This document shows positions 48,029 to 48,897 of a DNA stretch of 64,000 nt, in pieces. Made by a program: the position numbers and the translations under genes. The stretch's first letter is position 1. Every line of letters begins with the position of its first letter. This DNA comes from Eledone cirrhosa. Lineage: Eukaryota. The stretch is taken from contig OZ024743.1 of assembly GCA_964016885.1 (NCBI GenBank), forward strand, positions 369,954,001 through 370,018,000, given 5' to 3'. Below the pieces are notes generated by a model, which made no database searches, was not told the origin of the DNA, and saw nothing but the letters and a program-made list of their open reading frames with translations.

Positions 48029-48030
<2 letters not shown>

Positions 48031-48897
48031 TCTAGTGGGTCCGGGTATGATTTTACATTCATTTAAATTATTAATTTATTGATATTTTTTATCTGAGTGT
48101 CCCGAATCTTTCGTTATCGATTTTTTCGATCGTGCGGTTGATTATAGACTTGTTCTATGTGTGACGGTATTTTAACGATAGTTATAGCTCTGATTTATCT
48201 AAATCAGCGAGCACTCTGCCGCTCATATCGAATTTTGTTTATCGTGAACTCGTGCGCCGATTTTTCGATACTCGATCATTCTAATATATTTAGCTCTGGA
48301 CATAGCTATCCACCAGTTAATTTTATTGCTCCTTTTTTGTCGATTCTATTGAGTGATGAATAGCTCCTGTTTTATTTTAACATGTCTATTGAGCACTTTT
48401 ATTCGATATGTGTATTTCCACATTTTCTCGAATAGTTTTCGCGGATGTAGAGGTTATCTCCCTTGCCGAATTCCATGTGCGTATTTAGCCTGGGTTAAGC
48501 CATCTTATCCGTTCGGACGAAGCTCGTTGAAGAAGTAAATTTCCTATTCCCTGAATTCTAGAAGTCTTATATATTTATATGTGAGCTGGTAGAGTACAGT
48601 TTAAGGATTTATAGAAACCCAAGAAGCTAGATTTAACACCTTTCTAGTGGGTCCGGGTATGATTTTACATTCATTTAAATTATTAATTTATTGATATTTT
48701 TTATCTGAGTGTCCCGAATCTTCCGTTATCGAATTTTTCGATCGTGCGGTTGATTATAGACTTGTTCTATGTGTGACGGTATTTTAACGATAGTTATAGC
48801 TCTGATTTATCTAAATCAGCGAGCACTCTGCCGCTCATATCGAATTTTGTTTATCGTGAACTCGTGCGCCGATTTTTCGATACTCGATCATTCTAAT
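48029..48897 (+). mobile_element. non-coding element: ~1.4 tandem copies of a 613-bp unit (terminal direct repeats of ~265 bp)
   Basis: 48029-48295 repeats at 48642-48900; (TA)n on both sides; no long ORF. Confidence 0.75.

Follow-up and report, generated by a model that had tools for sequence, protein, structure and literature searches.

We identified two families of non-coding tandem units in the genome of Eledone cirrhosa that end in (TA)n and carry a predicted variant type I hammerhead, and that are probably non-LTR retrozymes moved by a Penelope-like (PLE) reverse transcriptase (RT). Both are represented in the 64,000-nt stretch of contig OZ024743.1 analyzed here (the window), for which an initial annotation had described a partial-tandem element that inserts at (TA)n, has no coding function, and conserves RNA structure, a reading that holds by alignments, 3' ends, and covariation. 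That the conserved motif is a hammerhead by descent and fold is very probable, and some subfamilies probably still cleave. The annotation had also raised a candidate new ribozyme class in a PLE-mobilized element; PLE as the likely mobilizer stands, whereas what was taken for a new class is a type I hammerhead that is complete, has a U3 core, and carries an oversized stem II.

The genome comprises 3.0 Gb and is rich in (TA)n and PLE-like ORFs. In the family A copy, positions 48029-48285 are repeated at 48641-48897 with two mismatches, forming a partial tandem between two (TA)n tracts (Table 1), as had been seen before with a period of 613 bp that we correct to 612. The reverse-strand sequence at 38030-38432, previously recognized as a diverged relative ending at a matching place, does end at the same position and shares 68.7% identity over 214 nt with the family A copy (E = 5e-14); it represents a tandem unit of 598 bp, family B, that is truncated at the 5' end. 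Both copies contain the elements first pointed out in the pair, namely a stem that changes from CTAGA/TCTAG to CTGGA/TCCAG, the GAAA-CC..GG-TC arrangement, and a CGGG/CCCG hairpin.

Table 1. Positions of the family A and family B features and of PLE-like coding regions in the window.
Feature	Position	Strand	Remarks
(TA)n tract, 5' side of insertion	47965..48028	none	
Family A insertion, 1.4 units	48029..48897	+	5'-truncated, starting 13 nt before a cleavage-site motif; fixed 3' end
One monomer between two GUC/C sites, 612 nt	48042..48653	+	Predicted linear/circular RNA unit
Predicted pseudoknot 5' strand GGAC	48515..48518	+	Partner 48548-48550; 3 bp only in window A copy
Hammerhead stem I 5' strand GCTCG	48522..48526	+	
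5' core half UUGAAGA + one extra nucleotide	48527..48534	+	U3.G8 wobble; most relatives U3-A8
Stem II, ~80 nt, extended hairpin with internal loops	48535..48612	+	Basal helix covaries
Extra invariant A, then GAAA (G12-A15.1)	48613..48617	+	
Stem III ACCC/GGGU with distal hairpin 48627-48647	48617..48652	+	
Predicted cut after C17 of GUC	48653..48654	+	Hammerhead numbering; 5'-end pile-up
Stem I 3' strand CGGGU	48654..48658	+	
Downstream CCCG, alternative partner of stem I 3' strand	48713..48716	+	Predicted off-switch
Three-way junction near 3' end	48769..48840	+	Possible RT recognition signal
Fixed 3' end running into (TA)n	48886..48929	+	
Family B insertion	38030..38432	-	5'-truncated copy of 598-bp unit
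Family B pseudoknot strands	38380-38375 + 38351-38346	-	
Family B stem I CCCG; core UUGAUAA; GAAA	38372-38369; 38368-38362; 38282-38279	-	
Family B predicted cut; downstream CCCG	38246/38245; 38210-38207	-	
PLE-like RT/GIY-YIG regions	15464-21769 (-), 41604-43916 (+), 25792-27696 (-), 29149-33567, 39123-39842, 46594-47300, 48927-49704, 55047-55850		

Both families consist of head-to-tail units of ~580 to 650 nt with a GC content of 35 to 38% and one type I hammerhead each, ending in (TA)n, and this low GC is accompanied by none of the features of LTR elements that we looked for (LTR, PBS, PPT). A first look at the genome gave 1752 candidates for family A and 3811 for family B (40 scored in each). 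In family A, the copy stops at one position and continues into (TA)n in 27 of 30 loci, the remaining three lying inside an array. Dispersed insertions identified by the exact 3'-end pattern number 1294 (A) and 1370 (B) against 0 in the control, and at least 5581 genome copies have a complete hammerhead fold when the CGGG and CAGG kinds are taken together; these counts rest on exact patterns and are therefore lower bounds. Partial tandems, a fixed 3' end, variable 5' truncation, and a microsatellite target are all present, which is the layout of PLE-type insertions. In alignments of 26 and 24 relatives, 2 of 113 and 14 of 176 indel runs are divisible by three, and an open frame on either strand occurs in no more than 2 of 26 and 1 of 24 rows, respectively; tblastn comparison with the transposon ORFs of the window gave no match to the family A or B element. 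An Rfam scan of the 64-kb window, a check already suggested in the initial annotation, matched no known family at gathering thresholds, and the unit itself gave two chance matches at E of about 6. Pattern scans of metagenome and viral contigs returned at least 119 and at least 120 stretches, which we discarded as chance matches (model R1 on 199 loci, best E = 0.14 among the matches listed). On a contig of a second organism we found the same core, differing at position 7 alone.

The element had been described as possessing only half a hammerhead core. CUGANGA is indeed absent, yet the U3 variant UUGANRA (48527-48533) supplies the other half, lying 80 nt upstream of GAAA in both window copies, directly after the stem I strand (CTCG at 48523-48526; CCCG at 38372-38369), and the A/B alignment shows a shared CYYG followed by UUGANRA 80 nt 5' of GAAA. 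Genome-wide, 5850 copies match the pattern of the 3' half (control 39), and 4692 of them carry G-UUGANRA 72 to 100 nt upstream (reversed-pattern control 0). When 36 distinct loci were chosen on the 3' half alone, the motif was present in 28, and the misses comprised three truncations, two deletions, and three single-copy point changes. GAAA and GUC occur in both window copies and in the relatives of families A and B found by DNA search, later alignment rows having been selected on these very letters. The probable cut at GUC 48651-48653, as first put forward, fits the predicted hammerhead site after C17. Among 31 representatives, all four bases occur at position 7, and positions 3 and 8 are UA in 23, UG in 7, and CA in 1; U3-A8 is a known natural swap (PMC4209133; PMC3088659). 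Matches with C3 (n = 70) are mostly C3.A8 mismatches (66, largely from one subfamily, which still spread), with one canonical C3-G8 and three off-register. All 31 rows carry one extra base (A or C) after A9 and an invariant extra A before G12, so stem II starts with an A.A or C.A opposition, and the pair beyond the extra bases is GC in 22, GU in 6, and AC in 3 (the A.C of family B). An unpaired base 5' of stem II (PMC4209133) and a basal stem II mismatch (PMC3088659) have precedents; for an extra A between 11.1 and G12, we found none in the accessible portions of the hammerhead literature examined. The UUGANRA core, covarying stems I and II, invariant stem III pairs, and free position 7 together argue for a type I hammerhead. 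Readings as hairpin, twister, pistol, or HDV-like ribozymes were rejected, the pairings required by their consensus features being missing.

For 26 representatives, which had been selected by a core pattern and cut down to the hammerhead region, unconstrained RNAalifold returned 14 pairs that correspond exactly to the three hammerhead stems and leave the core single-stranded, giving three helices around a core with helix I open-ended, the type I arrangement. Across 31 copies of 39 to 93% identity (median 60%), stems I and II covary and the stem III pairs are invariant. Paired cells amount to 91.9% in these rows, which were picked with patterns that include core letters, compared to 84.2% in shuffles (0 of 500 as high) and 23 to 47% in slid controls, and two of five pairing measures were no better than shuffles (382/500 and 330/500). 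Stem I spans 4 to 5 bp. In 760 copies CAGG replaces CGGG, and a hand count of the first 100 listed gave U as the opposite base in 96, A in 3, and C in 1; at the level of sequence, CAGG with an opposite U is a compensatory change in stem I. The CAGG families are divergent, one of them having a 652-nt unit and no blastn match to A or B. The 75- to 81-nt insert closes as a helix at the core, forming stem II, in 21 of 24 copies compared to 43 of 960 shuffles. In short constructs, folding gives the hammerhead as the minimum-energy structure for 11 of 24 copies and places it within 2 kcal/mol of the minimum for 20; it costs more than 2 kcal/mol in four, and P(stem I) is at most 0.06 in 6 of 14 CAGG loci even in this short form. 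The pattern of a short-stem-II ancestor gave 327 matches compared to 986 in the control; the candidates examined had no consistent stem I and were set aside, and the divergent CAGG families came out of the same search.

Fast hammerheads need a contact between helix I and helix II, and here the internal loop on the 5' side of stem II is complementary to a GRAC-type strand that immediately precedes stem I; this predicted pseudoknot would be such a tertiary contact. Within pairing windows set after inspection, a pseudoknot of at least 4 bp is possible in 27 of 31 copies (12 in a control stretch) and of at least 5 bp in 22 (control 3), with a range of 4 to 7 bp, and when partners were swapped the observed score was reached in 52 of 5000 trials. 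A pseudoknot as the contact between stems I and II is known in hammerheads (PMC3088659). Stem II also contains a 4x4 internal loop (e.g., 48562-48593) with AGAA opposite NGAC/UGAU, kept in many subfamilies and suggestive of tandem G.A pairs.

Further downstream, the stem I strand CGGG has an alternative partner, a CCCG 13 to 63 nt away, and each base pair of this alternative helix is kept in 23 to 24 of 24 rows. Adding the downstream arm lowers P(stem I) to at most 0.1 in 21 of 24 copies, and six circular monomers (581 to 652 nt) give at most 0.02; since nearest-neighbor folding favors local hairpins, the evidence for a switch lies in covariation, not energy. Of 13 CAGG loci whose 3' part could be read, 10 have CCUG or CUUG as the arm and 3 lack it. 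The CGGG/CCCG hairpin initially taken for stem I is this competing pairing, a predicted off-state, and the RNA proposed at that time for cleavage assays (48465-48897) includes the inhibitory arm, so that refolding might mask any activity. In five loci of the CAGG families (L393, L395, L397, L399, and L386), a (TA)n or (TG)n microsatellite has grown just 3' of the cut, in the loop that leads to the downstream arm. A three-way junction near the 3' end, likewise proposed earlier, was recovered in the minimum-energy fold of 16 of 24 relatives, but its stability is moderate (median z -1.6, with 7 of 24 below -2), and RNAalifold on the MAFFT alignment did not recover its closing helix.

The 5' ends of insertions were mapped at a resolution of ~10 nt in copies taken by 3' end only and in genome order, namely 70 of the first 72 listed for family A and 70 of the first 74 for family B, with five rows in close inverted pairs and one locus already in the set omitted and two family A ends falling outside the fetched stretch. 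A TA-rich 5' flank is present in 48 of 70 and 46 of 70 of these insertions. Within 23 nt 3' of the predicted cut lie 18 of 68 family A ends (2.8 expected) and 20 of 70 family B ends (3.9 expected); weighting by AT content raises the expectation to at most 4.0 and 7.4, with P at most 3e-5. The adjoining 23 nt upstream of the cut hold 0 of 43 and 1 of 34 ends, and a sliding scan placed the best phase of the 23-nt window, which was picked after data inspection, immediately 3' of the cut in both families. One family B copy starts exactly at the cut and most ends fall 5 to 15 nt past it, where TA microhomology begins, suggesting that trimming at the microhomology explains the offset. We regard the pile-up as an indirect sign of cleavage in vivo, though an internal transcription start would yield the same picture, and about three-quarters of copies read through the predicted cut site. 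A 16-site array contains 15 identical units of 615 bp; it begins within a unit after (TA)n and has the standard 3' end. Rolling-circle copying of a single circle would produce such an array, though polishing of the assembly might raise its uniformity.

We propose that, during transcription, stems I to III and the pseudoknot between the stem I flank and stem II would form an active ribozyme, and that 15 to 65 nt later the downstream arm would capture the 3' strand of stem I and switch the ribozyme off, as folding predicts for both states. Self-cleavage would occur during transcription and the cut monomers may be ligated into circles, with the off-state protecting the ligated circle and letting some sites escape cutting. 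A PLE protein would then nick (TA)n, and reverse transcription would probably start at one internal site 220 to 245 nt downstream of the cut, near the three-way junction. RT running off at the cut on cut linear RNA would produce the 5'-end pile-up, and RT reading on along uncut or circular RNA would produce both the 1.4-unit copies and the long arrays of identical units. A PLE RT has been reported to start inside its own RNA, and Anolis Poseidon inserts in vitro without a need for cleavage (PMC11167929). The PLE-like repeats of the window share the order of the element, with a hammerhead followed by about 130 to 170 nt and then (TA)n. The window and 60 loci, a tiny sample of a 3-Gb genome, yielded no autonomous element resembling the families at the 3' end; model R2 of the 3' structure, with 7 of 18 pairs lost, matched only family members in the same sample, and two short motifs had no relevant match in one supplementary file of PMC8557442. 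PLE-like ORFs near three loci (L094, L095, and L101) were rejected as partners, being separate insertions not continuous with the unit. At another locus (L015:710-1105), family A is joined to the 3' part of a PLE repeat through a short word common to both, and an inverted segment lies upstream; this junction is compatible with a template switch or a target deletion, and we set it aside.

The window also holds other repeats. PLE-like RT/GIY-YIG sequences of at least four families are nested in (TA)n, most of them broken or truncated; we presume their ORFs to be PLEs from sequence motifs and from the hammerheads in their repeats, with weak Pfam matches to RVT_1 and GIY-YIG for two of four ORFs and none for a 770-aa ORF. 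Canonical hammerheads with an 8-bp stem I and a palindromic 6-nt stem III sit in PLE-like terminal repeats at 41392-41454 (+), 60565-60627 (-), 61434-61496 (+), 38509-38565 (-), 39964-40020 (+), and 18038-18094 (-), and minimal hammerheads, often as inverted pairs and in one copy with U3.G8, in the repeats of another PLE-like family at 17151-17335, 28601-28640, 30561-30600, 31682-31720, 33907-33945, and 54715-54753. A canonical type I hammerhead with a 9-bp stem I at 46068-46124 (+), missed at Rfam gathering thresholds, lies inside a (TA)n-flanked element (45811-46137) with an 83-bp internal tandem that looks like an ordinary retrozyme-type element and has a related copy at 31299-31532 (-). 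A further hammerhead with a 12-bp stem II at 14474-14524 (-) adjoins an array (14024-14442) of 50- to 52-bp units of (TA)n plus a short unique spacer. The remaining repeats include gag-pol fragments of a Ty3/Gypsy-like LTR retrotransposon at 5346-9044 (-), between 432-bp repeats at 4260-4691 and 9413-9844 with 97% identity, and a 1.07-kb array of a 7-bp T-rich unit at 51724-52790.

Alternatively, the families could be non-autonomous derivatives of PLE terminal repeats whose hammerhead is genuine by descent but slow or dead and which spread via uncut read-through, the 5'-end pile-up then marking an internal transcription start or an RT stall. We consider this unlikely, while recognizing that the C3.A8 subfamily spread, that an extra A precedes G12, that the site is read through in most copies, that cleavage is dispensable for PLE insertion in vitro (PMC11167929), and that weak cleavage is frequent among PLE hammerheads (PMC4209133). 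Against it, copies of as little as 39% identity still combine the core, the stems, the pseudoknot, and the switch arm and show compensatory changes, and arrays of identical units exist; a stall, moreover, would sit at the 3' side of the downstream hairpin, where ends are rare (2/58 and 0/53). The same ribozyme and RNA cycle might instead be served by a microsatellite-targeting non-LTR RT of the LINE type. LINEs and PLEs are both candidates in PMC7229834, and neither sequence nor structure matched any PLE end in the window and 60 loci, but an element without a poly(A) tail, with partial tandems, an internal fixed start, and PLE-type core hallmarks, in a window whose PLE-like repeats have the same layout of hammerhead, spacer, and (TA)n, makes a LINE-type mobilizer improbable.

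Spread at the DNA level, as a satellite-like repeat amplified by unequal crossing-over or DNA circles with the RNA fold as a relic, would account for the long arrays, which polishing of the assembly may have homogenized, and unequal crossover has been proposed for local retrozyme amplification (bioRxiv 10.64898/2026.07.22.740005). We nonetheless hold it to be very improbable, given that the dispersed 3' ends of both families stop at one position joined to (TA)n, that 5' ends are ragged, and that arrays begin and end like single insertions. Nor do we give more than slight credence to the lead of the initial annotation, a new class of ribozyme or structured RNA merely resembling half a hammerhead: the lack of an Rfam match, the unusual size, and the extra nucleotides speak for it, yet all hammerhead core positions occur in order with a free position 7 and the known U3-A8 swap, and the three stems emerge unprompted in RNAalifold. 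Decayed transposon coding sequence, finally, was suggested by a VNSCA(D/E) stretch in both window copies; this stretch is kept in 5 of 24 rows and interrupted by a stop in 9 of 24, and with indels rarely multiples of three, frames closed, and no tblastn match to window ORFs, we practically dismiss it. The preferred reading remains a non-LTR retrozyme with a variant hammerhead, likely moved by a PLE-type RT.

A hammerhead that unites a stem II of 80 nt and a long stem III with an additional A 5' of G12, a pseudoknot, and a block by self-pairing may be new; we found no description of this motif in a search of largely open-access papers. Being invisible to Rfam and failing CUGANGA and short-spacer descriptors, such motifs imply that counts of animal ribozymes and retrozymes may be too low. 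The natural subfamilies at positions 3 and 8 (U-A, U.G, and C.A) constitute a ready mutational series, and the 5'-end pile-up together with identical-unit arrays offers genome-level evidence on cleavage and circles in PLE-driven retrotransposition. More speculatively, an overlooked hammerhead subtype with a U3 core, extra bases flanking an 80-nt stem II, a pseudoknot, and a co-transcriptional off-switch might drive large animal retrozymes, its cuts and rolling-circle copying recorded in the genome, and a kindred motif might hide in PLEs described as 'ribozyme-free' or 'half core'; we offer this tentatively, as a conjecture that may well prove wrong.

Among known systems, Chlamys PLEs such as MRC1 and the Naiads (Craig et al. 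2021, PMC8557442) share pseudo-LTRs, head-to-tail insertions, and microsatellite targets ((TA)n for Naiads) with the families described here. Hammerheads of the canonical kind are reported to be absent from them, and their 3' ends are generally similar to that of an autonomous family, whereas our sample of the window and 60 loci held no such partner. The hammerhead search in that study allowed a spacer of 7 to 17 nt from CUGANGA to GAAA and listed eight 'half core' Naiads; it would miss a motif with an 80-nt stem II, and 'no hammerhead' verdicts on PLE clades deserve a second look. PLE terminal repeats contain minimal hammerheads, among them one of Schistosoma mansoni with U3-A8 (PMC4209133, Cervera and de la Peña 2014), that are likewise type I and carry the hallmarks of PLE hammerheads, namely a short helix I (4 to 5 bp), an unpaired base 5' of stem II, and U3-A8, along with an enlarged helix II. 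Helix II is 7 to 8 bp in those ribozymes and ~80 nt here, and helix III is minimal and dimer-dependent there and 30 to 50 nt here; our families further differ in the extra A before G12, the U3.G8 and C3.A8 subfamilies, and the lack of an attached ORF. Among hammerheads with pseudoknots or variant cores, the U3-A8 covariation, the basal stem II mismatch, and the stem I-II pseudoknot are each on record (Perreault et al. 2011, PMC3088659), but stem II is usually very short, and in the accessible portions of that survey we saw neither all these features together nor extra bases inserted between 11.1 and G12. In the discontinuous Clec2 hammerhead (PMC6155905) the core is also split by a long helix, which is helix I in Clec2 and helix II here. 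Plant LTR retrozymes and viroid-like circles (PMC5680766) resemble the cycle proposed here in that their 600- to 1000-nt circles have the hammerhead blocked by self-pairing, whereas plant retrozymes possess type III ribozymes, LTR/Gypsy features, and about 55% GC. In their probable mode of action, the families resemble animal non-LTR retrozymes (Cervera and de la Peña 2020, PMC7229834; Li et al. 2026, bioRxiv 10.64898/2026.07.22.740005), which are also non-coding, low-GC tandem units with one type I hammerhead each, occur as dimers to long arrays, and have PLEs as their proposed mobilizer. Compared to these, the monomer here is 581 to 652 nt instead of the typical about 300 nt, the core is non-canonical with an 80-nt stem II and a long stable stem III, and insertions are mostly dispersed, 5'-truncated, and located at (TA)n. 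Most animal retrozyme circles reported in PMC7229834 are without a self-pairing off-switch of the kind predicted here, and how such circles avoid re-cutting, a question posed there, may be answered by the covarying downstream arm in a way that can be tested.
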